Below the pieces are notes generated by a model. That model was not told the DNA's origin. It saw only the letters and a list, made by a program, of their open reading frames with translations, and did not search any database. A stretch of DNA of 64,000 nt from Candidatus Poribacteria bacterium. Its GTDB lineage: Bacteria > Poribacteria > WGA-4E > PCPOR2b. A program made the position numbers and the translations under genes. Positions 1,708-42,013 of the stretch are shown here, piece after piece; positions within the stretch are counted from its first letter, which is position 1, and every line of letters starts with the position of its first letter. Location of the stretch: positions 1,184,001 to 1,248,000 of the forward strand of contig OZ244587.1 in the NCBI GenBank assembly GCA_965218095.1, read 5' to 3'.

Positions 1708-2343
1708 CTCTTATCTACCCCTTTCAAAATCAATACCCGACTCCTTTTTCAGGCACAAGCTTTTCGGTTAGCATAGTAGAGCGAGCGGATCGCTTGTTCC
1801 GCCTGAGAGTAAATCGCCAAAATAAGCTGGCAGTATACTCTACCATCCCACTTTCAACTCAAGTAAGTACCTGGATTTCGTCCAAAGAAGTGGAGGTTCC
1901 ATTGATCTGCCGAGGGCTAATCAGCCCAGTGGTAGTGCGGTGCAAAATGGTCAAAAGATGGATCCTATGGTTAGTTTTGGTATCTCAGGAAGCCTTTCTA
2001 TCACGTCGTTCATTTTTGCGGGTGGTTCAAAGCGTGGCTATATGGCGCCTTGGAGGCCGCCCTGCTGATGGGGGAAGACGCCCCACCGGCACAAACTGTT
2101 GAGTTAATCGGGTTAAGCCTCCAAACCCTAAAATCGCGTGGGATAAAGCGTTTCCTGCGCCAAATTCTCTTTTTGTCTGTCAGGTCGTGTTTTGCGGGAA
2201 AAGGGTCATAGGGATTGCACTGACCCCTTTATATCCCTTGATAGATCGCATCACAACTGCGTTACAAGTCTTGCTAAAGCCGTATAACATCCGGGTGATA
2301 TTGAACGAAATCTAGGTAACTAATCAGATCTTTTCAAGATTTC

Positions 2344-15655: not shown

Positions 15656-16404
15656 CTAAGAAACAGAACCTGCCTTTTTTAATGCCGCACTTAAAAACTC
15701 CAAGGCTGCCGTGCGGCGTAAGTATGGGTGGGCGAACTGATTCCGATAACCGCGTAGGCAGCCGTAGCAACTTTCGTCACAACCACAACCACCTTCAACC
15801 CGTGTTCTTGCGTTGCGAAGCATTTCCAAAAAAATTTTCTTATTTTCTAAATGTGCCACTAACCCGGCGCCACCCGGAACGTTATCATACAACACAATCG
15901 CCGCATCGTCCGCAGTATCCCCGCCAGTAATGGTGACGTTCAAGTCGGTATCCGGCACATCCAGTGCCTCGACCGCACCCAATAAAACGGCGTATGCGAG
16001 AGAATACGCCTCCCATTGATCGACCAATCTAGGAAATTGCAAACGGACTACATCAGTGATGAATTCATGTCCGAGAGACAGAGGTTCCAGAGGTCTGTTA
16101 CAATCACGACCTTCGGGTGTTTTATGCGAACTATCTGGCTCAGTGTAATGCGCGCCGCAGGAGCGACAAATATAAAACCCATTACCGTTTTTTCCTTCGC
16201 ATAGAACAACTAGGCCTCCTTGCAACGCTTGGGTAATCCTGATACCGAACAAATCCTTTGACGCATTCTCCAGTTGGGTGTCGTCATCAAACCCACGGAA
16301 GAACGGGCGCGTGGTATACAAACGGTGTGACCTCCCATGCGGCTCTTTGGGTTGATCCAGCAGCGAGGTCACGAAACCGAATTCGGGCCACAGGTATTTT
16401 CTTT
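15656..16404 (-). pseudogene. DEAD/DEAH helicase with DUF1998, C-terminal segment
   Basis: LGHEFITDV, LYDNVPGGAG, CGCDESCYGCLRGYRNQFAH (DUF1998 four-Cys motif); continues in frame from 18502-19204. Confidence 0.88.
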
Positions 16405-16462
16405 CGCGCTCATAAGTTTTAGACTTGATTTTTCCTTGAAAATCTGAAAGGAGTTAAGAACG

Positions 16463-16939
16463 ATGAATGTATTTGATGCTGTAGAAAGATTTTCGGATCA
16501 AGAGAGTTGTATTAAACACTTAGAAACCATCCGCTGGGGGGGTAAACCTAAGTGTCCGTATTGCGAAAGTGATCATGTAGCACCGAAACAGGAAGGCGAT
16601 AAAGTTGGACGGTGGAATTGCCATTGTTGCAAGTCGAGTTTCAATGTTTTATCCGGCACCTTGTTTCAAGGTACACAGGTTCCGCTTCAGAAGTGGTTTC
16701 TGGCTATCTTGCTTATGAATAATGCGAAGAAAAGCCTATCCAGTTGTCAACTTGCCCGACATTTAGACTTAACCCAGCCTTCCGCATGGTATATGATGCA
16801 ACGAATACGGTCTGAGATGGGCAGAAAAGGTAAAGTTCCGATGGAATCGGAATCCTCGGAAGCGGGTTCCGCGGGACGCGGAATGCTCGCCTTGCGGCAC
16901 TTGCTGAGAGACATTATCGAGAAACCACTTCAGGGCTAA
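16463..16939 (+). pseudogene. IS1595-family transposase, truncated before the DDE domain
   Basis: IRWGGKPKCPYC, WNCHCCKSSFNVLSGTLF, PLQKWF, LSSCQLARHL, AWYMMQRIR; similarity stops near 16838. Confidence 0.88.
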
Positions 16940-16997
16940 AACCCAATACTTTAGTTTTGGGAGTATGTCAATGAAGTTGACGAAACGTAGCGAGTGG

Positions 16998-17045
16998 TAG
17001 CAGAAGGTGTCCGTTCCGAGACAGGATTGATAGCACCCTCTGCTA
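16998..17045. terminator. Hairpin, possible terminator between the convergent transposase and dockerin genes
   Basis: tagcagaaggtg ... caccctctgcta (11/12 inverted repeat). Confidence 0.45.
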
Positions 17046-17051
17046 TTTTCA

Positions 17052-18473
17052 CTAGTCAAACTGTTTGGCAACAAGCACTAAATCAAAAATGTTTACAATG
17101 CCATCACCGTTGAGATCGGGCTTTGTTTTGCCGAAGTTTTTTGCAACCAATACCAGATCCAAGATATTGATTCTACCATCACCGTTGACATCAGCCGGGT
17201 TAGGGGTTTTGAGGTAGATTTCGCCATCTAAATCGGGAAGGATATGGATCATATCCTTCTTGTTGCTAGACATGGCAATCGTTGGTTGAGGCAATAAAAT
17301 TGCCTGCTCAGTCCTACTCCGGTTGTAGACTGCCCAGCCGTTAGTAAACTCTCGGATATACAAACCCTCGATATCTTGATACCGTTGGGTAATGGGACCG
17401 ATAGGTTGTCCGAGGTCAGCGTCCCAAAAAGGGTGCCAGATGTGTTTCTGGTAACCTTTTTGTCCGTTTTTTGTTCCAATAGTATAGAGCGAATATCCAT
17501 TAGACAGGGTGAGGCTCATTGTTGTGAATAAGCGCATCCACTGTCTATTTCTTGGGCTATCTGGTGGTTCAGCACCGATGCCGAAACCTCTTAAAAGGTT
17601 GATTTTGGGTTCTCGGACGTTTGCTTCATACCAGATAAGATTGTTTTCAATATCAATAATATCCGCGCGTGTGTACCCTTCTTCGCGCGTATTCGGGAAA
17701 GTTTCCATGAAACCGCCATTGATGTAAGGGGCTGAAAGCGGAAGTGGGTTCCGATTGTTATTACATAGAATGAGAAAATCGTCCGGCACAACTGCACGAA
17801 TTTTCTGGAGAATTGAGATGAGTGCCTGTCGTTCCACCTCAAGATCGAGCTGGTATTGCGGCGTTCTTTCATATTCATAATATGGGACCGTAGTCTCATC
17901 ATAAAGCACGACGTAGTTTTCCGCCCATGCGTCGAATACGATGCCGTCATACAAGCCACTTTTTGCGATAGCACCCGCCCGTTGAGCAATAACGTCTTGA
18001 ACTTCTGGCAATCTAAAATCAATTAGATAATCATTACCCCTGCGAACAGGATTTCCGTTGGCGTCTCTTAGCCAACCAAACCAATCTTCGGAATAACGAT
18101 CGGGGGAGGCATAACTTTGTCGAAGATCGAAGAGTAATATCAGATTGGGGTTTATGGAGAGCAGTTCATCCCGTATGGCTATCATTCTTGGTAAATCACC
18201 AATTAATTGATACCCTTCCGGGGTCAGTTGAAGCCCCTTACTCAAGTAATGCCACCAAAGATCATGAGTAGCAATACGTTCATTATAAGGTATCGAATCA
18301 TCCCACCAGTTACCACCACGATTCAAGATTCCATCGTCCCATGGTAGTGCAATAGATGGAAGGCTTCGATTGTCGATTCTGTCTCGAATCGAAGCGGTTT
18401 GAGAAGATTGCTGTGCAAAGGCAGAAGTCACAGCAAAGACGAATAAACAAACAGCAAAAACAAAACGTCTCAT
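17052..18473 (-). CDS. Secreted putative glycoside hydrolase (GHL15-like) with C-terminal dockerin domain
   Basis: Signal peptide MRRFVFAVCLFVFAVTSAFA; YDGIVFD; dockerin repeats DVNGDGRINILDLVLVA and DLNGDGIVNIFDLVLVA; RBS AAGGA. Confidence 0.78.
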   Translation of the reverse strand: MRRFVFAVCLFVFAVTSAFAQQSSQTASIRDRIDNRSLPSIALPWDDGILNRGGNWWDDSIPYNERIATHDLWWHYLSKGLQLTPEGYQLIGDLPRMIAIRDELLSINPNLILLFDLRQSYASPDRYSEDWFGWLRDANGNPVRRGNDYLIDFRLPEVQDVIAQRAGAIAKSGLYDGIVFDAWAENYVVLYDETTVPYYEYERTPQYQLDLEVERQALISILQKIRAVVPDDFLILCNNNRNPLPLSAPYINGGFMETFPNTREEGYTRADIIDIENNLIWYEANVREPKINLLRGFGIGAEPPDSPRNRQWMRLFTTMSLTLSNGYSLYTIGTKNGQKGYQKHIWHPFWDADLGQPIGPITQRYQDIEGLYIREFTNGWAVYNRSRTEQAILLPQPTIAMSSNKKDMIHILPDLDGEIYLKTPNPADVNGDGRINILDLVLVAKNFGKTKPDLNGDGIVNIFDLVLVAKQFD

Positions 18474-18501
18474 TTTAGGGTGTTCCTTTCTTTTGAGAGT
18501 G

Positions 18502-19204
18502 TTTTCTTTTAGAGGGACCGTTGGTTTCGTTCCATTGCTTGAAATTACGTGCATCATCGTAATCATAGCACATCACTCGAAATTCCTTACCGATAATTTT
18601 TTTTACTCCGTGGGAAATCCATTCCCTTTTGTCTGCGACAACCTTACCTCCCGGTGCGTATTCGGCAATGGCCTGCTGCAAATCCCGCTGTAAAGAAACT
18701 TTTGCTGCATCTGCCCTGCTTTTCGGACGAGTGTCTAGTTCCACAACGTCTACTGGAAAACCATATTCAGGAATAATAGCCTTGCGTGATAAGAAGGTCA
18801 GCGTCCTTTCCTCGGCGATGGTTTTCATGCGTCTATCCATTTGATTGACATGCGAGTAATCTCCCTTTTGATAGCATTCTTCTATCATTTCCCGCATCTT
18901 GCGATAGTCATCGCAAATTTCCTGCTCGGCATAGGCGAAACGGCTTTCCGGTCCCGCGATTTCTTCCACCCATTTCCCGTTGTTTAGCCCCGTTTCGACG
19001 TGCATATCCGACGGGACCACGAAGCGCATAGACTTATGTAACTCGTCATTATTCCGGCAAAAATCCTCAAAGTCAGAAACAGCGCGAGGATTATCCCAAT
19101 CGTTGATAAGATCCTGCACATTCTTGAACCGCTCCACGTTATCTCTTTTTTTGAAAAATGCGGACAACGCCACGGCGGTGATATGCCGTAAAATAATTCT
19201 TTTA
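18502..19204 (-). pseudogene. DEAD/DEAH-DUF1998 helicase, middle segment
   Basis: RHITAVALSAFF, LSRKAIIPEYGFPVDVVEL, LQRDLQQAIAEYAPG; the ATPase N-terminus is missing. Confidence 0.85.
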
Positions 19205-19223
19205 CGCAATCAGTAGTTTAGGG

Positions 19224-19252
19224 TTGAATTTCTGTGATAAATCGGGTATAAT
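19224..19252 (+). promoter_or_regulatory. Transposase promoter
   Basis: TTGAAT-N17-TATAAT, followed by AAAGGAG RBS. Confidence 0.6.
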
Positions 19253-19290
19253 AAAGGTGTTCAAACCCGCATTATCAAAGGAGTTCAGCC

Positions 19291-19966
19291 ATGAATTTGT
19301 TTGACACTATGGAACGATTTCCAGACCATAAATCTTGCATAGAATATCTTGAAAATATCCGCTGGGGTGATAATCCATATTGCCCACATTGTGGAAGTGT
19401 AGACGTGTATCAAAAGTTAGATGGCACCCGTGTAGGACGCTGGCATTGTAAGGATTGCCATGCAAGTTTTAATGTCTTAGCCAAGACGTTGTTTCAGGGA
19501 ACTCATGTTCCGCTTCAGAAGTGGTTTCTCGCCATCAGAGTGGTTTCTCGCCATCAGTCTGATGATGAATGCGAAGAAGAGCCTATCCAGTTGTCAGCTT
19601 GCCCGCGATTTGGGAATCAATCAGAAGACCGCATGGTATATGCAAGTCCGTATTCGTGCTGAAATGGCATCGAAGGGGGGCGGTCTCCTGAAAGGCATTG
19701 TTGAAACTGATGAAACCTACGTTGGTGGTAAGCCGAGAAAGGGAAACAAACGTAAGGATGATGAACCGAAGAACCCACGCGGGCGTGGCACGAAGAAAAC
19801 GCCGATCATTGGGGCTGTGGAACGCGGTGGCAAGGTTGTAGCCAAGGACCTGACGGGGAGAGGTGTCCTGAAGTTTATCAGGAATTACGTCAACCCAGAC
19901 GGGGCCGTGCTGATGACTGATGAATATCAAGCGTATAACGCGGTTGATTCTGCGTTCAAGCATGAA
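19291..19966 (+). pseudogene. IS1595-family transposase, frameshifted and C-terminally deleted
   Basis: Zn ribbon CPHC..CKDC, VETDETYVGG, GRGTKK, LMTDEYQAY; a perfect 19-bp tandem duplication at 19520-19557 causes the frameshift. Confidence 0.9.
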
Positions 19967-20535
19967 TTGGTTTCAGTTGCCTTATTACCTGACTCATCTT
20001 CGCCCGGTGCTGCGGAATCTGTCTGGGAGTCAGATTCCGCACCCGTATTCTCCTGACTCTGGGGTTCATCGGAATCTGTGAGGTTTTCTTCTGTTTCTTG
20101 TGTTTCTGGTTGCTCTGCCGATGCTTGGTCATCTGACTTTTCTTCTCCCTGTTCTACGGAATCTGTCCGGGAATCGGACTGGGGCTTGGTTTCGGTTGCC
20201 TTGTTATCTGGCTTGTCTTCGTCCGGTGCTTCGGAATCTGTCTGGGAGTCAGATTCCGCACCCGTATTCTCCTGATCCTGGGATTCATCTGAAGTCGTAG
20301 GATGTTCTTCTACTGTCCCGTTTTCACGCTGATTTGCTGTTTTCTCATCAGCAGCTACTACATCAGGTTTTTCGCTTTCTTGTGAATCTATTTTGGAGAC
20401 TGAATCACGGTTTGTGCTGTTGTTCTTGATCGAAAACCGGTGCCAAATGGCTTTGACTTTGATGAGTATTTTAACAAACTTCTTGAACATTGCCTTATAA
20501 CCTTTTTTGAATGCTTTGATAAGCTCGTTGAACAT
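19927..20535 (-). CDS. Acidic low-complexity protein with a 73-aa repeat, 3'-truncated by fusion to the transposase remnant
   Basis: QENTGAESDSQTDS...NKATET occurs twice; DNA repeat offset 219 bp (19997 and 20216). Confidence 0.55.
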   Translation of the reverse strand: MFNELIKAFKKGYKAMFKKFVKILIKVKAIWHRFSIKNNSTNRDSVSKIDSQESEKPDVVAADEKTANQRENGTVEEHPTTSDESQDQENTGAESDSQTDSEAPDEDKPDNKATETKPQSDSRTDSVEQGEEKSDDQASAEQPETQETEENLTDSDEPQSQENTGAESDSQTDSAAPGEDESGNKATETNSCLNAESTALYA

Positions 20536-26595: not shown

Positions 26596-27486
26596 ATGTC
26601 AAACGCTAATCCTTTCAAACATCCCGGTCAATGGTATCGCGGCAACACCCACAGCCACAGCACAGAGTCCGACGGAAAGCTGCCGATGGCGGAACGCTTT
26701 GCGGCTTACCGTGAGGCAGGTTACGACTTTTTGGTGCTGACCGACCATCGAAAGGTCAATGATGTTTCCACCTACAGTGATGACGGTTTCCTAGCAATTT
26801 CTGGCAGCGAAGTACACCCCAACAACCCTTACGGCGGCGACACATATCATATTGTCGGTATAAACCTCCACGAACGCATCAACTGCGCCGAGCTACATCC
26901 TAACGCCGTGATCGAGGAGATTAAGCGGCAGGGCGGCGAGGCGGTGCTCTGCCACCCCTACTGGTGTGGACACACGCTGCTGGACTATCTGCCGCTGAGT
27001 GGATACTTCGCGGTTGAAGTCTATAACGACACCTGCATGGGCATCGGCAAGGGCTTTTCCGAACAGGCTTGGGATGACTTATTGGATCGCGGCGGCCCCG
27101 TCTTCGGTATCGCTTCTGACGATGCACACGGCACGGAGCACGACTGTTTTCACGGGTGGGTCATGGTGAAGGTGCCCGAGCTCACCACCGATGCTATTAT
27201 GACAGCGTTTCGCACCGGAGCTTTCTATTCAACCCTCGGGCCGGAGCTGATCGACCTGGAGCTGGTGGACGAAAGCGAAGAGAAAAGGAGCGTCAGCGTC
27301 AAGTGTTCACCTGCACAGTCCATCGTTTTCAAAGCCCAGCGCAGTCGTGGCAAGCGCATCGTTGCCCCCGAAGGGGAGACTCTGACTGAGGCAATGTATG
27401 AAGTGCCGAGCAGCGTCAAGTACGTCCGCGTCGAGATTACCGATGAGACCGGCAAGAAGGCGTGGTCAAATCCGTTTTTCTTTTAA
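26596..27486 (+). CDS. PHP-domain (CehA/McbA-like) metallohydrolase
   Basis: GNTHSHSTESDG, YDFLVLTDH, CHPYW, EVYN, SDDAH. Confidence 0.88.
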   Translation: MSNANPFKHPGQWYRGNTHSHSTESDGKLPMAERFAAYREAGYDFLVLTDHRKVNDVSTYSDDGFLAISGSEVHPNNPYGGDTYHIVGINLHERINCAELHPNAVIEEIKRQGGEAVLCHPYWCGHTLLDYLPLSGYFAVEVYNDTCMGIGKGFSEQAWDDLLDRGGPVFGIASDDAHGTEHDCFHGWVMVKVPELTTDAIMTAFRTGAFYSTLGPELIDLELVDESEEKRSVSVKCSPAQSIVFKAQRSRGKRIVAPEGETLTEAMYEVPSSVKYVRVEITDETGKKAWSNPFFF

Positions 27487-27623: not shown

Positions 27624-27709
27624 GCCCGCTGTTAGTATTGTAGAGACAATTCCCTGTGTCTGTTCGCTTGTTGTCCGGCGATGTCCCGTCTTGTAGGAGA
27701 ATTGGCAAT

Positions 27710-28354
27710 ATGAAATCCTATAGTAAGACGATGCCCATTATCTCAAGTGTGGTGGCCGTGGGAGTTCTCTTTATTGTGTCCGTGGGAGCATTAGTCATGC
27801 CCATGCCACGAAACCTATCTTCACTGACACCCGCGGAAGAAGAATACCTCAACAAGAATCTTGCGACGAGGCGAATCTCGGAGGAAGATTTCCCGATGAT
27901 TATCCGCCGGATGCGCCGTGACCCCCAACGGGAAGGTACGTTGAAACGTGCAATTAATAACGATTTCAACGCCCGGTTTTCGCGTGATGTCCACGATATC
28001 AGCCGTGCGGTCCGTGATCCGTTGATTGTTTGGGATACGACCAAACAGTACTTTGAGCAAACGGGCATCCCGAAAGGGTTAGGCAAGATAGGCTTGTCCA
28101 TGATTACGAGCCCGTTTCGAGTTGCGGAGGAACTCATATCGGAACGACAAGAGCACCCTTTGAGGACAAATGTGGTGGCGTTAGCTTGGGGGGTACTGAT
28201 CTCTGTAAGCTTAACGGCATGTTTAGCAGATTTTCGCAATACGTTCGGCTACCCACATTTGGCACCCGTTATCCTGCAGAGTCCAAAAGTTTTGTGGAAA
28301 TTCACGCTGGATAGAATCAGGGAACTGTCAAAGGCGATACAGGGTAAAGAGTGA
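27710..28354 (+). CDS. Hypothetical membrane protein
   Basis: Hydrophobic segments near both termini; ATG after AGGAGA. Confidence 0.6.
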   Translation: MKSYSKTMPIISSVVAVGVLFIVSVGALVMPMPRNLSSLTPAEEEYLNKNLATRRISEEDFPMIIRRMRRDPQREGTLKRAINNDFNARFSRDVHDISRAVRDPLIVWDTTKQYFEQTGIPKGLGKIGLSMITSPFRVAEELISERQEHPLRTNVVALAWGVLISVSLTACLADFRNTFGYPHLAPVILQSPKVLWKFTLDRIRELSKAIQGKE

Positions 28355-28474
28355 CTTCTCTTTGTAGGAACAGGTTTCAAACCTGCACTACCTTACAGCA
28401 CCTGCAAATTGACAGGTAAGGCATGGAGGGATACCAAGTCTACAAAAACAGGTCTGTCTAATAGAGTGAAGCTT

Positions 28475-28966
28475 GTGCAAACTCTTCTTCAAATCTGGAA
28501 AATATATCTTGATACTTGTTGTTTGAATCGTCCTTTTAATGATCAGACGCAAGCGCGGATTCGCCGTGAAACTGAAGCCGTTCAGACAATTCTCGCTCGG
28601 TTTTTCACAAGTGACTGGCAGTGGGTTACTAGCACGGTTCTAGTGAATGAAATCAGCAAAACCCCTGGTGCAGCACTACGCGATGATATGGAAGCCTTAC
28701 TAAGTCTTGCACATCAAAATGTCTCGGTTGGTGCGTCGGAACAAACGCGATGCACACCACTTAAATCGTTGGGATTTAAGTGGTTGGATGCTTTGCATAT
28801 TGCCTGTGCCGAAAGCGGTGGAACGGATATCCTTCTAACTACAGACGATCGGATGCTTAGAAGGGCGAAACGCTTCCATTCGCAACTTCGCGTTCGTGTT
28901 GAAAACCCTTGCACATGGTTAGAGGAGATCGCTGAAGATGAACATACGAGATCTGCTAGAAGCTGA
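28475..28966 (+). CDS. PIN-domain (VapC-like) nuclease toxin
   Basis: IYLDTCCLNRPFNDQTQARI, DALHIACAE, LLTTDDR, VENP; start position uncertain. Confidence 0.88.
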   Translation: MQTLLQIWKIYLDTCCLNRPFNDQTQARIRRETEAVQTILARFFTSDWQWVTSTVLVNEISKTPGAALRDDMEALLSLAHQNVSVGASEQTRCTPLKSLGFKWLDALHIACAESGGTDILLTTDDRMLRRAKRFHSQLRVRVENPCTWLEEIAEDEHTRSARS

Positions 28967-30632
28967 GATGAATAAACTCCGTCGTCTGAATCCAGAGGTT
29001 CACGCGCTTTTGGAGAGAATTTTTCAGTACAAAGATGGCAAAGGCGATTATTCCGTGGATCGACACAAATGGATGGAGACGCTTGATGAGGAAACATTTC
29101 TGAACGAGATTCGCCAAATTGAAGCACGCGAGAAAGCTATAGCTATGGCGCATACTCAAATCACACAGCAGATTGCCAAAGAAACCTTAGCCTCTATGGT
29201 GCTCTTGGAAATGGAAGATGCCACAGGCCGGCTCCTCGGAATTGGTAGTGGATTCTTCATACAAAGTAACCAGATTGTAACCAGTTTTCACGTTATTGAG
29301 GGAGCCAAGCGTGGTGCCGTCAAGCTGCTGGGAAACTCAACAACGTATAACATTGAGGGAATCACCGCGAAGAATGAAAAACACGATCTGGCAATTTTAC
29401 AAGTGCCAAATTTTGGAATTCCCCCCCTTTCCCTCGGTAATAGTGATACGGTCGAGATTAGCGAAATTGTGTATGTCGCGGGTAATCCAAAAGAATCGAC
29501 AGAGGCTTTCTCCTACGGTATCATCAGTAGTATCCGAGGAAGTTCTACTGACAGACGGTTCCAGATGACGGCAATGCCTCCTCCGTGGAGCAGTGGAATA
29601 CCGGTGCTAAACGAAAAGGGGGAAGTCATAGGTATTTCAGTAATGACCGTTGCAGGTGAGCAGAATCCTAATTTTATTATTCCGGTCAATTATTTCAAAA
29701 CATTGCTCACTCGGACAGAGCCGGCGAGACCTTTGTCCCAAGGGGAACCATTGGTATCTGCTGAGACTTACTTCAGGTGGGGTTATACAAAATCCGAGTT
29801 GGGTCAGTATGAATCCGCTATTGCGGATTATGACATGGCGATTCAACTCAGACCAGATTATGCAATAGCCTATAATGATCGGGGGGTTGTCAAGGGTAAG
29901 CGGGGTGAATATAAGGCTGCCATTGAAGATTATGACGAAGCAGTTCGCCTCAAACCCGATTGTGCCGTAGCCTACTACAATCGAGGCCGCACCAAAGATC
30001 AACTGGAACAAGGCTCTGCTGCGATTGAAGACTATAACATAGCAATTGACCTTGCACCGGATTACGCTGATGCCTACTATAATCGGGGAAATGCCAAGTC
30101 TACTCTGAAGCAATATAAGGCTGCGATTGAAGATTATGACAAGGCAATTAACCTCAAAATCGATTATTCTATTGCCTATAACGATCGAGGCGTGGCGAAG
30201 TCTGCCTTGAGGCAACATGAGGCTGCGATTGAAGACTATAACATAGCAATTGACCTTGCACCGGATTATGCTGATGCCTACTATAATCGGGGAAATGCCA
30301 AGTCTACTCTGAAGCAATATAAGGCTGCGATTGAAGACTATGACAAGGCGATTAACCTCAAAACCGATTATGCGATGGCCTATAACAATCGGGGAAGTGT
30401 GAAGTTCGCTTTGGAACAATATGATGCTGCGATAACCGACTATGACGAGGCGATTCGCCTCAATCCGGATTATGCCATGGCTTACTACAATCGGGGAAGT
30501 GCGAAGACTAATATAGGTCGTGTCTCGGAAGCGGCGCAGGATTTCCAAACTGCATTGGCACTCGCGGAGCAGACCGGCGATGAGGGTCTCAAAGCCATGA
30601 TTAGCAGCCCTATGGAAATTCACGTTGGATAA
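28938..30632 (+). CDS. Fusion of an antitoxin-like N-terminus, a trypsin-like peptidase and about 8 TPRs
   Basis: QYKDGKGDYSVDRHKWM; GSGFF, TSFHVI, HDLAIL, WSSGIPVLN; repeated AYYNRG TPRs. Confidence 0.82.
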   Translation: MNIRDLLEAEMNKLRRLNPEVHALLERIFQYKDGKGDYSVDRHKWMETLDEETFLNEIRQIEAREKAIAMAHTQITQQIAKETLASMVLLEMEDATGRLLGIGSGFFIQSNQIVTSFHVIEGAKRGAVKLLGNSTTYNIEGITAKNEKHDLAILQVPNFGIPPLSLGNSDTVEISEIVYVAGNPKESTEAFSYGIISSIRGSSTDRRFQMTAMPPPWSSGIPVLNEKGEVIGISVMTVAGEQNPNFIIPVNYFKTLLTRTEPARPLSQGEPLVSAETYFRWGYTKSELGQYESAIADYDMAIQLRPDYAIAYNDRGVVKGKRGEYKAAIEDYDEAVRLKPDCAVAYYNRGRTKDQLEQGSAAIEDYNIAIDLAPDYADAYYNRGNAKSTLKQYKAAIEDYDKAINLKIDYSIAYNDRGVAKSALRQHEAAIEDYNIAIDLAPDYADAYYNRGNAKSTLKQYKAAIEDYDKAINLKTDYAMAYNNRGSVKFALEQYDAAITDYDEAIRLNPDYAMAYYNRGSAKTNIGRVSEAAQDFQTALALAEQTGDEGLKAMISSPMEIHVG

Positions 30633-30661
30633 AATTTAGCAAAAGAGGAGGAAGTTGTACA

Positions 30662-31645
30662 ATGGCGGATCTGAGAGTCGGTGTTATTGGTTGTGGTGGG
30701 CACGCGCAGGGGCACTTTGCGATGATTAAAGATGAACCCCGGATGGAACTTATCTCAGTCGCAGAGATCGACGACCAACGGCTGCAGCAGGCAAAGCTCG
30801 CCCATAAACCCGAATCTGCGTTCCGCGATTACCGCGAGATGCTGGATCGAGTCGGCCTAGATGTTGTCTATGTCGTCACCATGCCCGGTCATCTGCTGCC
30901 GATTGTGGTGGAGTGTTTGGGGCGCGATCTGAACACGTCGGTCGAAAAATCGCCGGGGATGAACGTCGGAGAAACGCGGCAGATGCTTGATACCGCCCAA
31001 AATAGCAAAGGCAAAGCGATTCTGTCCGTCAATCGCCGCTACAAGCCAGAGGTTTTGGCGGTACGGAAGTTGCTGCAAGAACGGGGTGGGGCAGTTCAAG
31101 TGGCTGCGGATTACCACAAACTGCCATCGGGGTTGCAGCGTCCGGGCCTACGAGAGGTTGCGCCGCCGGAGATTATCTGCGACTCCATTCACCACGTGGA
31201 CCTGCTCCGCTGGATGGCAGGGCGCGCGCCGACCGAAGCGGCAAGCGCAGTCGAAGTTTACGGCCATTCATGGGCTGGTGAGCGAGAAGGCACGTCCCGC
31301 TACAACGCCGTCATCGCCTTCGACAACGGCTGTCACGGCACAATGATGAGCCACTACGGGGTCGGCTATCGGATTCAGACAGCGGAAGTCCACGCTGAAA
31401 ATATGTCAGCATACTTAGATCTGACGCGGACACCAAAGATCACAGTCTACCTTGACGGAAAACTGTGTGAGGAGCCGCTTGACCTCGACGCTGTCGGTGG
31501 GCCAGACTTCAACGAAACCAGCCATTTCGCGGACTGTATCCTCAATGACACCACGCCGTGGAGTCCGCTGGAGGATGCGGTGAAAACGATGGAATTGTGC
31601 GAAGCCATTGAGCGTGGACACTGTGGGGCGCTTACAACGGTGTGA
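30662..31645 (+). CDS. Gfo/Idh/MocA oxidoreductase
   Basis: VIGCGGHA, VEKSPG, DSIHHVDLLRW. Confidence 0.9.
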   Translation: MADLRVGVIGCGGHAQGHFAMIKDEPRMELISVAEIDDQRLQQAKLAHKPESAFRDYREMLDRVGLDVVYVVTMPGHLLPIVVECLGRDLNTSVEKSPGMNVGETRQMLDTAQNSKGKAILSVNRRYKPEVLAVRKLLQERGGAVQVAADYHKLPSGLQRPGLREVAPPEIICDSIHHVDLLRWMAGRAPTEAASAVEVYGHSWAGEREGTSRYNAVIAFDNGCHGTMMSHYGVGYRIQTAEVHAENMSAYLDLTRTPKITVYLDGKLCEEPLDLDAVGGPDFNETSHFADCILNDTTPWSPLEDAVKTMELCEAIERGHCGALTTV

Positions 31646-35592: not shown

Positions 35593-36753
35593 CTACATGT
35601 CCGTATCAAGCATCTGGTTTTCGGCAGGGACAAATTTGCCATCACGTACTACCTTGACATAAGCCGGCTTGATGCAGTCGCCGTTCTTATCGAAGTAGGT
35701 TAAGCCCGTGATGCCTTCGTATCCTTTTTCGGGGGTGGTTATCGAGGCCAAATGTTTCTGGATGGCTTTGCGGTTCTCACCGCCCTTTTCAATCGCTTCG
35801 ACAATCATGCCAACCGCATCATAACTCAACGCCGCCCAGGTATCGGGCGCAACGCCGTATTCTTCCTCAAACACCTTTGCGACCCTTTGAGCTTCGGCTC
35901 CTCCAAGTTCAAACACAAACGGGGTCGAAACATACGTACCTTCGGCAGCATTGCCGGCGATCTGAAGGAAATCTGGGGAATCCACACCATCGGCGCCGAA
36001 GAGTTGGGCGGTGATGCCCGTCTCACGAGCTTGTGAAGCGATCAATCCAGCTTGACTGTATAAACCGGAGATAAAAATCAGATCCGGATTTTTCGCCTTA
36101 ATGCTTGTCAATTGCGCCTTAAAGTCGGTGTTATCCCGATCATACGCCTCTGTCGCAACGATTTCGATCCCAATTTTTTTGGCGGCGTTTGTAAAACCGT
36201 CTTTGAGACCTCGCCCGTAATCGTCGTTATCAAAGAAAATCGCGATTGTCTGGGATGTTTTCAAGACATTCTTGATATACTTTGCCACAAACTCGCCCTG
36301 AAAATCGTCACGATACAAATTTCTGAATGTCCAATCGCTCCCCTCACAAACACGGACATTGGTGGAGCCGGGTGAAAGCTGGACAATCCTCGCTCGTTTA
36401 TAGATCGGTTTCCCTGCCAGTGAACAGGAGCTATTAAAGTGTCCAACGACTGCAAGGATGCTCCGATTAGTCGCAATTCGCGTTGCAACCAAACTTGCCT
36501 CTTTGTCTTTGCCAGCGTCATCCTCAAACATGAGCGTGAGCGTTTTGTCATTGACGCCTCCAGCGGCGTTAATTTCTTTTGCCCTGAGTTCAGCACCGCG
36601 TTTAATCATCTCTCCGAAAGCGGCAGTATTCCCCGTAAACGGACCGGCAACAGCGATCTTAATAGTCTTCGCCCCATAGCTCTCAAGAGTAGAACCGAAA
36701 ACGGCGATGAGGGTTATGAAAAAAAGTGCTATAATCTGTACTTTGGTTTTCAT
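35593..36753 (-). CDS. livK: Branched-chain amino acid ABC transporter substrate-binding protein
   Basis: AGPFTG, INAAGGV, VVGHFNSS, DDYGRGL, YDAV, GITG..FD.NGD. Confidence 0.9.
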   Translation of the reverse strand: MKTKVQIIALFFITLIAVFGSTLESYGAKTIKIAVAGPFTGNTAAFGEMIKRGAELRAKEINAAGGVNDKTLTLMFEDDAGKDKEASLVATRIATNRSILAVVGHFNSSCSLAGKPIYKRARIVQLSPGSTNVRVCEGSDWTFRNLYRDDFQGEFVAKYIKNVLKTSQTIAIFFDNDDYGRGLKDGFTNAAKKIGIEIVATEAYDRDNTDFKAQLTSIKAKNPDLIFISGLYSQAGLIASQARETGITAQLFGADGVDSPDFLQIAGNAAEGTYVSTPFVFELGGAEAQRVAKVFEEEYGVAPDTWAALSYDAVGMIVEAIEKGGENRKAIQKHLASITTPEKGYEGITGLTYFDKNGDCIKPAYVKVVRDGKFVPAENQMLDTDM

Positions 36754-36788
36754 TTTTTTCGTCCATCCTTAGAAATTCTTCTCTAGGT

Positions 36789-36837
36789 AAAAAATTGCCA
36801 GCAACGAAACCGAAATTAACCTTTCATTGCTGGCAAT
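36789..36837 (-). terminator. Intrinsic terminator
   Basis: attgccagca...tgctggcaat stem followed by a T run on the minus strand. Confidence 0.55.
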
Positions 36838-36871
36838 GAGATAAAAACTGGATAACGGACATGACAGTAAT

Positions 36872-37666
36872 TTATTCTTTTACGTTCACAACTTGCCGAA
36901 AATCGAACTCAAAATCGACTTTTGACCGCTTTTTATCCTTATCGATGATCAGGACTTCCGGCAAGATGACTTTCACATCCGTTGCGGCAACGTCAAGCCG
37001 ATCAAAAACCAGAAGCCCGTCACGCTTCGCTCCTGAGAAAAGCCTGCCTCCATCGAATACCGTCTCACGAGCAACCATACGCTCATGATTCACAGCGTTC
37101 GGATCTGGATAGTAGTCGTATACCCGGTACGGTGGGTAACGGTACGGATAACCGTAATGATAACGGTAGAGACTGCGGTAGTAAGACCTGGGGATGGGGT
37201 AAGAGTATCGATATCCGATGTCGTGGAAAGCCACTGTGCGTGGCCTCGCGTTCTCGTAGAGCTCTTTGAAGTAATCATAAGGGAACGAGGCATACTGCTC
37301 GCCGTTCTGATCGACTAAGATTGCCATCGGATCGACGATAACCCTCGGATTGCCTGTATTTTCGATGCGGATGCCGAAAACGGTATACAATGGCTCGACA
37401 TTTCCCCAACGGTCAATCCTGACATAAGGATTAATCCGCGCGTCCTCCGTAAGTTCAAACAGTTCCACTTCATCGAGCGGTTCGAGCGTAATCTGCACAC
37501 CCCGCTGTTCTACAGAAATCGACCCCGTCTGTGCATCAATTTGCGCCTGTTCCCTGCCTGGGACAGGCTCCATATACATCTCAACGTATGGCTTTGGCGC
37601 ACATCCCACCAAAATGCTGATTGCCGTGATAAGGGCAAAGACGCCCAGGAACTTTCGGTACATCAT
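36872..37666 (-). CDS. Hypothetical lipoprotein with a Tyr/Arg/Pro-rich insert
   Basis: Lipobox LVGC; YRYSYPIPRSYYRSLYRYHYGYPYRYPPY. Confidence 0.7.
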   Translation of the reverse strand: MMYRKFLGVFALITAISILVGCAPKPYVEMYMEPVPGREQAQIDAQTGSISVEQRGVQITLEPLDEVELFELTEDARINPYVRIDRWGNVEPLYTVFGIRIENTGNPRVIVDPMAILVDQNGEQYASFPYDYFKELYENARPRTVAFHDIGYRYSYPIPRSYYRSLYRYHYGYPYRYPPYRVYDYYPDPNAVNHERMVARETVFDGGRLFSGAKRDGLLVFDRLDVAATDVKVILPEVLIIDKDKKRSKVDFEFDFRQVVNVKE

Positions 37667-37875
37667 TTTGATTTACTCCTTCAAGATTGGGTATCAGGGT
37701 TTAGGCATCAGGTATTTGGTATAACACCCAACACCTAATCCCGCATTAATTATACGCTAACTTGTCAGCATTGGTGGATAACGCAATATTGGGGTTTCTC
37801 AAGAAGACTCGAACTTCTTTTGAAACAGCTATAGTTTAACACAGAAACGTGAGGAATTGCAATCATATTCTGACT

Positions 37876-39108
37876 TCAATATCGACGTAAAGCCGCAATC
37901 CGCTGAAGCACCGGCGGATGGCTGTAATTGAGAAATACGGTCAAGGGATGCGGCGTCAGATTACCGAGATTGGAAACAGACAGGGTTTTCAAACCAGAGA
38001 TTAGCGGCTCTGGGGAGGTGACGGTCTCGGCGGCAAAGGTATCTGCTTCATATTCGTGCTTGCGGGACATATAGTTCACACCAATTGAAAGCACGAGTTC
38101 AATTGGAGAGTAGAGGATTGAGAAGAAAACGAACCCAGCATAGATCGAGATCTGCTCCATCCGAAAGGCATCAAAAAGCGCTCCGTTGTCAACAAAGCGA
38201 GAGAGGAGAAACAGCAGTATCCCCGCATGAAGAACGGATAAAACCGTGCCTTTCAGAACATGCTTTTTCTTGTAATGTCCCACCTCGTGAGCGATGACCG
38301 AGACGAGTTCCTCAACAGAATGCTTGTCAATCAAAGTATCAAACAGCGCAATCCGCTTTTTCTTGCCGAAACCGCTGAAATAGGCGTTGGAATGGGTTGA
38401 ACGTTTGGAGCCGTCCATAACAGAAATTTCTGTGAGCAGGAATTTCGCTTTTGCAGCATACTGCTGAAGGGCATCTTTAAGTTCACCATCTTCTACAGGG
38501 GTAAACTTGTTGAACAGCGGTGCGATTACAGTCGTAAATAGTAGCGGCGCGATGATGATGAACAGGGATACCAGCCCCCAGGCATACATCCAAGCGTAGG
38601 CGCCGGTTTTCTCAAAGAAGTACAGCAGCCCACCGAGCAAAATGGAGCCTAAGATGATGACCAAAACGTAGGTTTTAATCCTGTCCAAAACAAACGTTTT
38701 GACTGTCATTTTGTTGAAGCCGAATCTTTCTTCAATGCCAAAATCGGTATAGAGAGAAAAGGGTATAGAGATGATTTCTCTCACAAAATAGAGTATACTA
38801 AAGAAGATTAGGCCCGTTGGGATTGGTGACAGATCCAGGCTGCGAACGAAGTTATCGACATAATTAAATCCGCCGAGTAGGATGAAAGCCAAAATTAAGG
38901 ACAGATCAAATGTGGACGAAACATAAGCAAACTTTGCGTATACTCTGGTGTATTCTTGAGATTGGCGGTATTTGTCTTCGTCATAAAATCCCTGAAATTC
39001 ATCGGGCAGCTTCGGATTTAGTGCTTTTAAGTTTAAATAACGCGCAACGCTGCGAAGGGTAAACTCGCCAGTCAGCGCGGTGAGTATAATTACAAGATAG
39101 ATATTCAT
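37876..39108 (-). CDS. M48 (Ste24-like) metallopeptidase
   Basis: DGSKRSTHSNAYFSG, IAHEVGH, EYEAD, YSHPP. Confidence 0.95.
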   Translation of the reverse strand: MNIYLVIILTALTGEFTLRSVARYLNLKALNPKLPDEFQGFYDEDKYRQSQEYTRVYAKFAYVSSTFDLSLILAFILLGGFNYVDNFVRSLDLSPIPTGLIFFSILYFVREIISIPFSLYTDFGIEERFGFNKMTVKTFVLDRIKTYVLVIILGSILLGGLLYFFEKTGAYAWMYAWGLVSLFIIIAPLLFTTVIAPLFNKFTPVEDGELKDALQQYAAKAKFLLTEISVMDGSKRSTHSNAYFSGFGKKKRIALFDTLIDKHSVEELVSVIAHEVGHYKKKHVLKGTVLSVLHAGILLFLLSRFVDNGALFDAFRMEQISIYAGFVFFSILYSPIELVLSIGVNYMSRKHEYEADTFAAETVTSPEPLISGLKTLSVSNLGNLTPHPLTVFLNYSHPPVLQRIAALRRY

Positions 39109-39150
39109 AGAATCGCTTCAAAACCTTAGCTTTGTAAACTTCTAGACTGG

Positions 39151-39393
39151 TTAGGTGTTGCTTGACACCGTAGATACTTCTATTGAACCAACCTTTGTTG
39201 GGGTTAGCTCACTTGAATGTCGTGTCAGATATTCAAGAACTTCCCCTTACATCTTTTCGATCTCCGTCCGAAACCCACTTGAAATGAGGGGAAATCCTTC
39301 AGGTGTTGCTTTGACACGCAATTGTAAAAGTAGGTTTTGAAAATACTCAATACGTTCCTGAGTGGTTTTTAGTTCTTTATCATTGCGAATCAT
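39151..39393 (-). pseudogene. Small helical hypothetical protein with an internal nonsense codon (probable cassette gene)
   Basis: MIRNDKELKTTQERIEYFQNLL...EIEKM*GEVLEYLTRH; the stop overlaps ACCTAAC, an attC inverse-core-like sequence. Confidence 0.6.
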
Positions 39394-39447
39394 TCTCTCA
39401 CCGCAAACAAATGTTAGCCGCCCAACACAATCAATATTCCCATATGA

Positions 39448-40055
39448 TTACGGCAGCCGCAATATCACCATCTTATCATCATCGCCCGCAATTGCGACAA
39501 CAGTATCGTTCAATCCCAATACCACCACATTATCAACACCTACATCCGCCTCACAGTCGCCACCGCCAGACACTTGTTATCGGGTGAAAATGCCAGGCAG
39601 TGTTCCAAAGTGTCGAATTGTTTCCCCCAGACCGCCCCCAGGTCGCTTAGACGATAAACCACCACCTCCCCGCCGCTGCCCTGCACCGCAAGGTAAAGTC
39701 CATCCGGTGAGATCGCCAGCGCATTACTCGCCGGATACTTCCGGAATTGTGGATTGATCATTTTACCGGGAGACCCATCAGCCATTGACCAGAATCGCAC
39801 AGGATCCTCATCCCAGGGAATACTAGCAACTTGTTTTCTATCGGGCGTAATGCACATGTCGTAGGCAGAATTTTCGTACGGCGGTTGCGTGGGTCAATGT
39901 CCTTCAGCTTGCCATACCTGGTTTCCGGTTGCCGCGTCTATCAAAATTACGCCACTGACGACACCCCCCGCGACGATGTATTTGCCATCAGCAGAAAATC
40001 CCAGGCCCCGAATGTAACCGTTGCCGGGCTCTGCGTGCCACACGACGACGCCATT
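39448..40055 (-). pseudogene. WD40/beta-propeller fragment with a stop and frameshifts
   Basis: GFSADGKYI, ITPDRKQV, AISPDGLYL, AFSPDNKCL. Confidence 0.7.
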
Positions 40056-40108
40056 TTCAGCAATACTTCTCGTACTCGGGGTGCAATTCATCATCAAGTG
40101 CAATTATA

Positions 40109-40404
<296 letters not shown>

Positions 40405-40460
40405 TTATTTCTGATTTGTTGTTCTACTTTGACGACACAGCGAAATCTCTTTTTTCCCCT

Positions 40461-40481
40461 GCCTAACGACTGGTGAAGTTT
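40461..40481 (-). other. Half attC site (core GTTAGGC only)
   Basis: GTTRRRY 14 bp after the stop of the upstream cassette gene; left arm absent. Confidence 0.5.
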
Positions 40482-41066
40482 TTATTCTTTGAGAACCATA
40501 TCGACACACATCACGGCTGCAAGGATTAACTGACGGACTACATTCTCATGGGGCACAGATTCACCAATCTCAAGTACATAATTGTCTGCACTTGTAAAGA
40601 GTTCCTTGCCAATCCCTGCCCATTTCTTCGTTACATGAGCCAATTCAGTCTCATCTGCCATGAACTTAAAATCCCATCCTGTCCACTTGCCTTTGAGTTG
40701 GCAAACGGGTCTCTCGCTTGCATCAAGGACACTAAAAGCACCACCTATCGAAAAATTCTGCTTGAACCCACCTATACACTGATCGTTTCCGTCAAGAACG
40801 TTCACTTCAGAAAGAAAGACAGAAATTCCTCTCGTAATACGAACGATCTGATGTCCATCAGGAGTTCTGATCTGAATATCAAAAGGTGTCATTCTTTTGA
40901 AGTTCGTGAACCTGAGAACCTTGGTGAAGATTCCCAATCGTTCTTCACGACACTCCATGATAATGTGACCCGTTTCCGGATCATAAATGTCGTAATTATT
41001 AGCTGCCTTGAACATTCCAACATGTTCTTTGATGAGGAAAATATTCCTATTCAATACGTCGTGCAC
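40482..41066 (-). CDS. Scramblase/LURP-one-related protein (integron cassette)
   Basis: KAANNYDIYDP, LKGKWTGWDF, KKWAGIGKELFTSADNY; GTG start just after the attC core. Confidence 0.8.
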   Translation of the reverse strand: MHDVLNRNIFLIKEHVGMFKAANNYDIYDPETGHIIMECREERLGIFTKVLRFTNFKRMTPFDIQIRTPDGHQIVRITRGISVFLSEVNVLDGNDQCIGGFKQNFSIGGAFSVLDASERPVCQLKGKWTGWDFKFMADETELAHVTKKWAGIGKELFTSADNYVLEIGESVPHENVVRQLILAAVMCVDMVLKE

Positions 41067-41092
41067 TTTGTCCCCCCTTTTCTTCCCCTGCT

Positions 41093-41197
41093 TCCTAACA
41101 ACCGAGTTGAGGTACGTTGCAATCACTGACATGAATCGAATGGCAGAACCACTTTCATCCACTGCTGGCTCAACGTCAACTCCAACGATGGTTAGAC
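41093..41197 (-). other. attC recombination site (105 bp)
   Basis: Minus strand GTCTAAC-CATCGTTGGAGTTGACGTTG...CAACGTACCTCAACTCGGTT-GTTAGGA, with R and L boxes pairing. Confidence 0.8.
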
Positions 41198-41252
41198 TCC
41201 ACACGCGCCAGGCACCGTGCGCCGGTCGATAAACTCCCACCGCGAGCTGCCG

Positions 41253-41329
41253 ATCTAACTCTTGATTATGCGGAAAAAATTCCGTATAATCCTTTATGCC
41301 AGAATTTTTTCCGTATAAAAATTTTAGGC
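41253..41329 (-). other. attC recombination site (77 bp, degenerate inverse core)
   Basis: Minus strand GCCTAAA..TTATACGGAAAAAATTC...GAATTTTTTCCGCATAA-TCAAGA-GTTAGAT; 16/17 stem. Confidence 0.7.
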
Positions 41330-41348
41330 ATTGTATAGATACAGGCTT

Positions 41349-41840
41349 TTAGTCTACGCTAATGCCATGCTTCTGCATGTGACATTTGGGACATAATGCT
41401 TGCAAGTCCTCTAACCCTTCTTCACCTATCCGCTCATAATTAAGATGATGCACTTGTTTCGCTTCGTTTGTACATCCCTCATTTTCACAAATAGACCACG
41501 CAAATGACATCACCGCATCCCTTTTACGTTTCCACTCATCAGATTTTAGATACTCACGCTTATACGCTCGTTCATCCATTCGACAATACGGACCCCACTG
41601 GATCACACTGCCACATGGATGTATGATATTCTCAGGCGTAGATTCAAGACGAGATTGTAGTTCTTTGTCTGACAATGTTAAATACAGCCATTGAGCCTTA
41701 TAATATTCTGGAGTACAAAGATTGCGATCTAGTATATTTGGGTTCGACTTGATTTGTCTGGGCACGCAGATAGTGCCAGCGCGCCCTGATAGTTCGTAAA
41801 GGTGTATCATCACCTTTCTTTCATCAATACAATTTTTCAT
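41349..41840 (-). CDS. HNH endonuclease-domain protein (first cassette)
   Basis: YLKSDEWKRKR, CENEGC, QVHHLNYERIGEE, LQALCPKCHMQKH. Confidence 0.88.
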   Translation of the reverse strand: MKNCIDERKVMIHLYELSGRAGTICVPRQIKSNPNILDRNLCTPEYYKAQWLYLTLSDKELQSRLESTPENIIHPCGSVIQWGPYCRMDERAYKREYLKSDEWKRKRDAVMSFAWSICENEGCTNEAKQVHHLNYERIGEEGLEDLQALCPKCHMQKHGISVD

Positions 41841-42013
41841 TGGGTTTTCTCCTTCATTCGTAGATGAAAAAGCCTATATCTACACATCCCCAAATTTTAT
41901 CCAGAATTTCCACCTGAATCAATTTCCAAAACCTGATAAAATAGAAATCAAACGGTTGACGAAATTATACAACCTTTCTAAACCACAGTCAACGGAAAGT
42001 TGCGGAGAGAAAA

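Follow-up and report, generated by a model that had tools for sequence, protein, structure and literature searches.

A central question about toxin–antitoxin (TA) systems that is still open is how they are switched on, and the known answers are host proteases, chaperones, and sensor pseudo-domains. Here we analyze a locus in which a gene for a putative PIN-domain (VapC-like) toxin is followed by a gene whose product joins, in a single chain, a small antitoxin-type module, an HtrA-like protease domain, and an array of tetratricopeptide repeats (TPRs). The locus lies in a 64,000-nucleotide stretch of DNA from a Candidatus Poribacteria bacterium (NCBI GenBank assembly GCA_965218095.1, contig OZ244587.1, positions 1,184,001 to 1,248,000 of the forward strand), which we call the window and whose numbering is used throughout. 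The closest described systems are VapBC pairs, HtrA-type proteases, TA defenses coupled to a sensor, and conflict systems that include peptidases.

Like VapBC, the locus encodes a PIN protein with four conserved acidic residues next to a small, overlapping partner gene whose translation is probably coupled to that of the toxin. The partner is modeled over the active-site face of the PIN domain, and the distribution of the pair is patchy, multi-copy, and dispensable, as for VapBC. Unlike in VapBC, the toxin gene here precedes that of the partner, which lies outside all described families and lacks a ribbon-helix-helix (RHH), AbrB, helix-turn-helix (HTH), or Phd-type domain, and the partner carries a protease-TPR tail of ~500 residues. 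The protease part is like HtrA, DegP, DegS, and HhoA (MEROPS S1C) in its Trypsin_2 fold, its His-Asp-Ser residues, and the C-terminal protein-binding domain that follows the protease, but differs from them in having TPRs instead of PDZ domains, no signal peptide (it is predicted to be cytoplasmic), an altered serine motif, and an antitoxin-type N-terminus. The closest relatives of both the protease and TPR parts belong to an exported protease-TPR family of Poribacteria.

CmdTAC is a toxin–antitoxin–chaperone defense, and the TPR-CHAT protease of type III-E CRISPR systems combines a peptidase with a repeat module. Sensor-coupled TA defenses use a capsid-binding pseudo-antitoxin domain, or a separate chaperone together with host proteases. 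In CapRel(SJ46), systems of the HigBA-SecB type, and CmdTAC, an extra module on the antitoxin, or acting on it, decides whether the toxin is released, and our locus is like them in this idea only, since here a protease-like domain and a TPR array sit in the antitoxin chain and no sequence relationship was found. Conflict systems dependent on nucleoside triphosphates (NTPs) and TPR-CHAT likewise bring together a peptidase, a repeat-type protein-binding module, and a nuclease effector; unlike in those systems, the effector here would be a separate PIN protein held by an antitoxin-type module. One preprint describes CapRel(SJ46) as a fused, sensor-coupled TA defense (bioRxiv 10.1101/2023.12.08.570793), and passages of Kaur et al. 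2020 (PMC7159879) mention a TA system with a SecB chaperone and discuss trypsin-like and caspase-like peptidases in NTP-dependent conflict systems, for which proteolytic activation of effectors is proposed. Open-access word searches of the literature, in which a missing hit counts for little, found no description of the partner family, nor of any antitoxin that carries a trypsin-like protease with TPRs in the same chain.

The putative PIN toxin and its partner module

The PIN protein and the N-terminal module of the downstream protein very probably form a TA-type pair. The longest open reading frame (ORF) for the PIN gene is 28409..28966 on the plus strand, starting from a TTG at 28409. Better candidate starts are a GTG at 28466, which aligns with the ATG start of the orthologue in another species genome (L002), and a GTG at 28475; by this comparison the true start is placed at one or the other, and we give the gene as 28466..28966 (+). 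Its product matches Pfam PF01850 over residues 10–131 (30.1 bits vs. a cut-off of 23.6, E 8e-7). Residues D13, E59, D105, and D124, numbered from 28475, are invariant across 32 PIN homologues (alignment A3), and we take them to be the catalytic set from established knowledge of PIN domains. The PIN subfamily is large, with 2644 homologues at E<=1e-5; when relatives were restricted to one genome per species, 15 loci were recovered, 13 of them in Poribacteria.

The second gene is the ORF 28938..30632 (+), of 564 codons, and its ATG start lies inside the PIN ORF, so that the two genes overlap by 29 bp (28938..28966), as was originally predicted and as the ORF coordinates confirm. A Shine-Dalgarno-like GAGGAG (28922..28927, +) is located within the PIN coding sequence, 10 nt before this ATG. 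Along the plus strand, the gene encodes a complete PIN-partner module of antitoxin type (residues 1–68; 28938..29141), a fusion junction (residues 69–72; 29142..29153), an HtrA-like (S1C) Trypsin_2 protease domain (residues 73–270; 29154..29747), and an array of 8 TPRs (residues ~275–545; 29760..30572). All of the features named here for the PIN gene and the fusion are present at these coordinates.

It had been proposed that the first ~70 residues resemble the small partner proteins encoded beside this PIN subfamily, and this is borne out. At seven loci in a different genomic context (L006–L012), PIN is followed by a complete ORF of 68–71 amino acids (aa). The overlap of this ORF with the end of the PIN gene is 23 or 29 bp, and the ORF is preceded by AGGAG, as in the window. 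The products of these stand-alone ORFs are 66–72% identical to residues 1–68 of the window protein, and in tblastn searches residues 1–62/67 match directly after PIN at the same loci with 71–76% identity. Judged by this similarity, residues 1–68 are homologous to the stand-alone small partner of the PIN subfamily. A profile of the module gave 368 matches in 120 of the 176 Poribacteria genomes, with up to 9 matches per genome, and at 26 of the 30 best module loci in these genomes PIN is directly upstream on the same strand. Two of the 26 have only a C-terminal piece of PIN and one has a truncated PIN, while the remaining 4 loci have no PIN at E<=1e-4, one of these being at a contig end. In the genome of the window itself, the N-terminal module is single-copy.

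A phmmer search with residues 1–95 against 1.84 billion representatives returned only 15 proteins, most of them of 63–87 aa. One of these (P0006) is a single chain of 222 aa with PIN in front and the module behind. Another (P0010, 1378 aa, matched in 5 stretches) proved to be an FMN-binding repeat protein and was discarded as a false positive. Open frames of 225/226 aa with a whole module were also seen in Poribacteria genomes (G173:C3:2925475-2925678, G117:C139:36642-36845, G161:C1:469207-469410, G159:C1:4675769-4675972, and G140:C87:37711-37914). In the three such frames that we checked by tblastn (L070, L075, and L076), PIN directly precedes the module, and they thus represent a single-chain TA form. 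The C-terminal half of the module (~28–70), with the signature G-x-G-D-Y...R-H-x-W, recurs in many larger open frames of 130–584 aa, including P0008, P0011, P0012, P0014, and P0015, as well as in tandem double modules; at one locus (L013), a two-module protein lies upstream of PIN. From these larger frames and double modules, we conclude that the partner belongs to a wider, undescribed domain family. The locus gives the large PIN subfamily a family of partners that had not been described.

Searches of Pfam, NCBIfam, and PADLOC gave nothing above noise for residues 1–100, and the assignments to DUF4624 (0.0072), MakE (0.012), and PDC-M68B (0.0075) were rejected, as they fall far under the cut-offs. 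No DNA-binding domain of the RHH, AbrB, HTH, or Phd type was found by Pfam or NCBIfam in residues 1–100 or in the stand-alone partners. A profile search with the module alignment found no relative in the PDB (the best matches, at E 0.5, were to designed proteins and are noise), and the ESM Atlas gave nothing usable for residues 1–72. Modeled alone with AlphaFold2, the module is predicted to form four helices, with a predicted local distance difference test score (pLDDT) of 68.6 and a predicted template modeling score (pTM) of 0.40, values too low to base a fold search on.

When the PIN protein and the module were modeled together, the complex scored 0.86, compared with 0.02 for the best of 3 controls, which supports the predicted binding of the two proteins. 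In a benchmark of this score, 116 of 157 solved complexes reached the mark, as did 2 of 215 mismatched pairs, counts that hold only roughly here because our own alignments were used for the model. Three runs of the complex agreed in at least 74% of contacts, with a pLDDT for the partner of at least 77, and the modeled contacts lie on either side of E59 and D105, two of the invariant acidic residues.

Origin and active site of the protease-TPR tail

The original prediction also described an in-frame fusion of this module to a trypsin-like domain and about 8 TPRs with no signal peptide, and each of these points holds. Pfam places Trypsin_2 at residues 103–233 (E 1.4e-24) and recognizes 8 stretches of TPR_1 (E 1.3e-59); no PDZ domain was matched by Pfam, and the TPRs stand in its place. 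The closest solved relatives of the protease domain by sequence are HhoA, HtrA, and DegP (E 4e-15). A hydrophobicity scan of the first 90 residues found no N-terminal signal segment, the most hydrophobic 12-residue window (1.39) being at residues 79–90, inside the protease, and 13 of the first 35 residues are charged. AlphaFold2 with a 17-row alignment gave a mean pLDDT of 44 and a pTM of 0.37 for the whole 564-aa protein, which makes that model unusable for domain packing.

The fusion occurs in other genomes as well. Module and protease fall in one match in 3 of the 176 species genomes, namely that of the window, G054 (86%), and G040 (83%), and the fusion is found in 17 protein clusters (at 90% identity) of 392–565 aa from other assemblies, all with Trypsin_2 and TPRs and with a module at least 81% identical. 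Apart from the window, the species genomes with an open fused frame are those of L002 (565 aa) and L004 (428 aa). The fusion stretch is present in the sequencing runs of nine studies, and contigs from RNA libraries of three studies span the module-protease junction with 1–5 mismatches and no indel (X16 record 9, 28400–29227; X19 record 28, 28963–29684; X17 record 20, 28995–29459). Stretches of the RNA runs that lack contig cover, such as ~30094–30247, are uninformative. Since the frame is open in other species, in 17 clusters, and in RNA-library contigs that bridge the junction, there is no stop between the modules and the fused frame is no assembly artefact.

To place the tail among its relatives, we compared residues 1–270 with Poribacteria and obtained 1870 matches in all 176 genomes; among the matches listed, all but the window copy and two fused orthologues cover the protease part only and are at most 63% identical. 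The protease part (residues ~68–269) is thereby placed in a very large paralog family of the phylum. The genome of the window has 7 close protease paralogs, 47–62% identical by tblastn, which lie outside the window on contig C1 and belong to the family that makes up nearly all of the 1870 matches (6198584–6199192, 6200007–6200618, 4132753–4133358, 3057540–3058151, 5286637–5287236, 4545094–4545720, and 1093094–1093705). All seven start with a basic stretch, a hydrophobic segment within the first 35 residues (Kyte-Doolittle maximum 1.87–2.96), and a motif of small residues, after which comes a conserved stretch that reads '...QTPQQIAKK...' in the closest paralogs. Because this hydrophobic segment is found in every one of them, the paralogs would be exported, and their N-termini can be read as Sec or lipoprotein signals. 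Six of the seven have TPR arrays, the paralog at 6198584 having a different, non-TPR C-terminus, and two lie in tandem at 6.198–6.200 Mb. In the paralog at 1093094–1093705, the catalytic serine is replaced by Asn (motif G-G-N-G-G-A), and it is probably a pseudo-protease within the exported family.

Homology between the window protein and the paralogs starts at about residue 73 ('...TQITQQIAKE...'), where the signal peptide of a paralog would end, and the stand-alone partners end at 68–71. As the end of the partner coincides with the start of paralog homology, we conclude that a whole partner gene, having lost its stop codon, took the place of the signal peptide in a protease-TPR gene. The exported family is characterized by signal peptide, Trypsin_2, and TPRs, and in the fusion the partner module takes the place of the signal peptide; by these sequence comparisons, the fusion gene is a derived offshoot of that family. 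The reverse order of events, in which the fusion would be ancestral and the small partners truncations of it, was rejected, as the stand-alone form is far wider and, in the paralogs, a signal peptide occupies the position of the junction.

In a tree of the protease domain with 53 sequences (17 from fusions and 36 from paralogs, after removal of hits shorter than 180 residues), the 17 fused domains fall in one clade with support of 100/100. The stem of this clade has a length of 0.40 changes per site, whereas every other inner branch is at most 0.19. A single fully supported clade on a long stem indicates one fusion event followed by strong divergence. Between the fusions and the paralogs, 12 of the 198 protease columns have switched.

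Some of these changes are at the active site. His118 (codon 29289–29291), Asp150 (29385–29387), and Ser219 (29592–29594) are invariant in all 17 fusions and align with the HhoA triad. However, the residue at Ser-2 is Trp in 17/17 fusions (Trp217 in the window, 29586–29588) vs. Gly in 36/36 paralogs, and at Ser+2 the fusions have Ile, Val, or Met in place of Gly; the aligned HhoA sequence shows Gly at each of these sites. The serine motif of the fusions is of a Trp-x-Ser-Gly-Ile type in place of Gly-x-Ser-Gly-Gly, and differs from the Gly-x-Ser-Gly-Gly-Pro that characterizes HtrA/S1C. The Asn beside the catalytic His has also become Ser (N116S), alongside the change on the serine side (G217W). 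In S1 proteases, the backbone of the glycine at Ser-2 helps to form the oxyanion hole, and other residues at this position strongly lower catalysis. With Trp at Ser-2 in all fusions, catalysis is therefore doubtful, and from the sequence we would expect a protease domain that is weak, slow, or non-catalytic, or that is competent only after a conformational change.

The TPR array is variable. The number of TPRs differs among the fused orthologues (392–565 aa), with gaps of ~2 to 5 repeats when aligned to the protein of the window, and within the array of the window protein a 204-bp unit of two TPRs is duplicated in tandem (30018..30391, +; Tandem Repeats Finder, 1.8 copies, 95% matches).

Constraint on the tail, its possible role, and alternatives

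To estimate constraint, ratios of nonsynonymous to synonymous divergence (dN/dS) were calculated among the three species copies, giving 0.20–0.26 for the module, 0.23–0.29 for the protease, 0.22–0.24 for the TPRs, and 0.15–0.27 for PIN. The tail, being similar to the module and PIN in this respect, is thus constrained about as much as the rest. For comparison, flanking genes have dN/dS of 0.04–0.09, and stand-alone PIN and partner genes 0.17 and 0.14, respectively.

The state of the tail follows that of the toxin. An intact fusion stands beside an intact PIN in 3/3 cases (the window, L002, and L004), and independent internal deletions of the tail stand beside a broken PIN in 3/3 cases (L003, L005, and L014). 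In window coordinates, the deletions are 29103–30498 in L003, 29099–30601 in L005, and 29181–30539 in L014. In L003, the PIN frame is interrupted by a stop at about codon 93, and in L005 by a stop 27 codons before its end. In L014, only PIN residues 102–163 remain, directly after a 417-aa ORF (1658–2911, minus strand) that by its position alone is probably the transposase of an inserted element. Such a pattern would be expected if the tail were of use only together with a live toxin, and if truncation of the partner were tolerated only once the toxin is dead. As the protease-TPR appendage is kept only while PIN is alive, it would most likely act on the function of the antitoxin.

The extent of all three deletions closely matches the protease-TPR part, leaving the first 55–80 partner codons and the PIN remnant in place. 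The one deletion joint that was examined has 1 shared letter and no long repeat. A joint of the L003 type (29101->30499) is found beside the full-length form in one DNA run (X1), and the sample may have included a second strain or species that is the source of this deletion form.

The locus also has the marks of a mobile module. The G+C content of the 28–30 kb bin is 0.467 vs. 0.507 and 0.523 in the adjoining bins. Synonymous divergence (dS) between species is 2–5 times lower in the PIN-fusion module (0.20–0.45) than in the two flanking genes (0.61–1.23; 26596–27486 and 30662–31645), and L003 is 96% identical to the window in the PIN region vs. 86–87% in the flanks. These differences suggest a recent exchange of the PIN-fusion module (28400–30640) between related symbionts. 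The PIN-partner pair is found in different genomic contexts across lineages, and its patchy and multi-copy distribution, low G+C, low dS, shifting context, and repeated pseudogenisation together mark it as a mobile, dispensable module.

On balance, we think that the fused tail is probably a selected, functional appendage of the antitoxin and no passenger. We propose that the locus began as a two-gene module in which a PIN toxin gene preceded and overlapped that of its small partner. Loss of the stop codon of the partner gene would then have led to an in-frame fusion with an exported HtrA-like protease-TPR paralog, of which the mature part was retained, and with the partner in place of the signal peptide the product would be left in the cytoplasm. 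Residues 1–68 would wrap the active-site face of PIN and hold it inactive, and the tail would control how stable the antitoxin is, how it oligomerizes, or whether it lets go of PIN upon binding of a ligand to the TPR array. Rather than a free-running protease, we would expect a switch that works by conformation or by a single turnover (self-cutting). Such a swap of a signal peptide is a route by which a symbiont can give one of its exported proteins a new use inside the cell.

The original prediction went further and saw a sensor-gated TA or defense module in which TPR sensing leads to serine proteolysis of the antitoxin and release of PIN. The TA-type pair is very probable and the chain of partner module, protease, and TPRs is confirmed, but the defense setting is not supported: the ORF list of the window shows no defense island around the locus and no NTPase, vWA, STAND, or CRISPR component near it, and the locus components match no PADLOC-DB v2 system. 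The proposed release is weakened by Trp217, by the unstable repeat number, by the origin of the tail in an exported family, and by decay of the module in three relatives, and we hold this chain of events, with its supposed TPR sensing and antitoxin cleavage, to be improbable. Its full form is protease-gated abortive infection, where a trigger at the TPRs, such as a phage or host protein, would make the serine protease cut the tethered antitoxin or the linker, in the same or a neighboring chain, after which the PIN RNase would arrest or kill the cell. One cytoplasmic chain does hold all that is needed, namely an antitoxin-type module, a protease with invariant His-Asp-Ser (17/17), and a protein-binding array. 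Purifying selection on protease and TPRs and tail loss only beside a dead PIN agree with it, and the long stem branch together with N116S and G217W suggests re-tuning after fusion. Allosteric activation through remodeling of the oxyanion hole, as in DegS and other proteases of the HtrA type, is a further point in its favor. Another is the proteolytic activation of effectors that is proposed for trypsin-like peptidases of conflict systems (PMC7159879). However, Trp at Ser-2 and Ile/Val/Met at Ser+2 are found in all fusions, invariance of the triad among such close kin means little when many columns of the domain are invariant in the alignment (A1), and the TPRs have an unstable number and no diversifying signal (dN/dS 0.22–0.24). 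There is also no defense-island context, and PADLOC matches are limited to the protease domain of single-gene models that pair it with a reverse transcriptase (RT). Abortive infection of this kind is, in our view, unlikely. A self-contained protease-gated switch, in which the TPRs would bind a phage or sponge-host protein, the re-tuned Trp217 site would become competent, and the chain would cut itself or its neighbor in an oligomer to free PIN, is equally one that we doubt. If it were true, the antitoxin would be independent of host Lon or Clp and built from an exported symbiosis-type protein moved to the cytoplasm.

Another possibility is that deletion or recombination joined the genes by accident, leaving an antitoxin module that works and a useless tail that is slowly being lost. 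The narrow distribution (3/176 genomes), the three independent tail deletions, one of them coexisting with the full-length form in one DNA run, the altered serine motif, and the unstable repeat number with its recent internal duplication are all in keeping with a passenger, and one paralog in the window genome lacks the serine, so the family tolerates lost catalysis. Yet dN/dS of the protease and TPRs (0.22–0.29) does not exceed the values of the module or PIN and is much lower than 1, and the frame has stayed open over 392–565 codons in 17 clusters. Moreover, a useless tail would be expected to be lost beside a live PIN too, whereas deletions are found in 0/3 cases beside an intact PIN and in 3/3 beside a dead one. 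We consider a passenger tail quite unlikely; if the tail were nevertheless inert, the locus would still illustrate clearly how a mobile module in uncultured sponge symbionts undergoes gene fusion and then decays. Outside TA biology altogether, PIN might be a housekeeping or processing RNase and the module an adaptor that ties it to a TPR scaffold for protein or RNA-protein targets. That the partner has no DNA-binding domain, that the toxin gene is first, that the locus sits among metabolic genes, and that the C-terminal half of the module is present in many larger open frames of 130–584 aa would agree with an adaptor. Its patchy (120/176 genomes) and multi-copy (up to 9 matches per genome) occurrence would not, nor would the different genomic contexts, low G+C, low synonymous divergence, and repeated pseudogenisation, and we regard this explanation as very improbable.

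Several points weigh against a TA-type pair with a functional tail, the reading that we prefer. The complex score is the model's own confidence, and toxicity, neutralization, and binding are predictions. A partner with no recognizable DNA-binding domain and a toxin gene that comes first are atypical for VapBC. With regard to the tail, dN/dS of ~0.25 in the fusion reflects weaker constraint than in flanking genes and somewhat weaker constraint than in stand-alone pairs, the fusion is limited to a narrow clade (3/176) in which it was lost three times, so that the appendage may add little, and the widely varying number of TPRs among fused orthologues fits poorly with one fixed ligand. The co-decay count comes from six genomes of close kin only. 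Finally, RNA libraries may contain DNA, so that their contigs give the fused frame and only hint at transcription.

Neighboring genes and composition of the window

By the ORF list and family searches, the neighbors of the locus are metabolic, with a CehA-like hydrolase upstream and GFO/IDH/MocA oxidoreductases downstream. In PADLOC, the protease domain alone matches the single-gene RT-Protease_XI models (E 1e-15), with no RT at the locus, and sub-threshold matches were obtained for PIN (E 0.011) and the N-terminal module (E 0.0075). Just 5′ of PIN is a 232-aa ORF (27656–28354, plus strand) with one hydrophobic segment and no family match. It is present in the window and partly in L002 and is absent from L003, L004, and L005, which makes it part of a variable spacer region; its assignment to Drt5 (E 0.0043, 16 bits vs. 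a cut-off of 550) was rejected. Elsewhere in the window, G+C content is lower at 16001–20000 (0.45–0.46) and 36001–42000 (0.42–0.47) than the ~0.51–0.53 found in the rest, and these two stretches may be other acquired regions.

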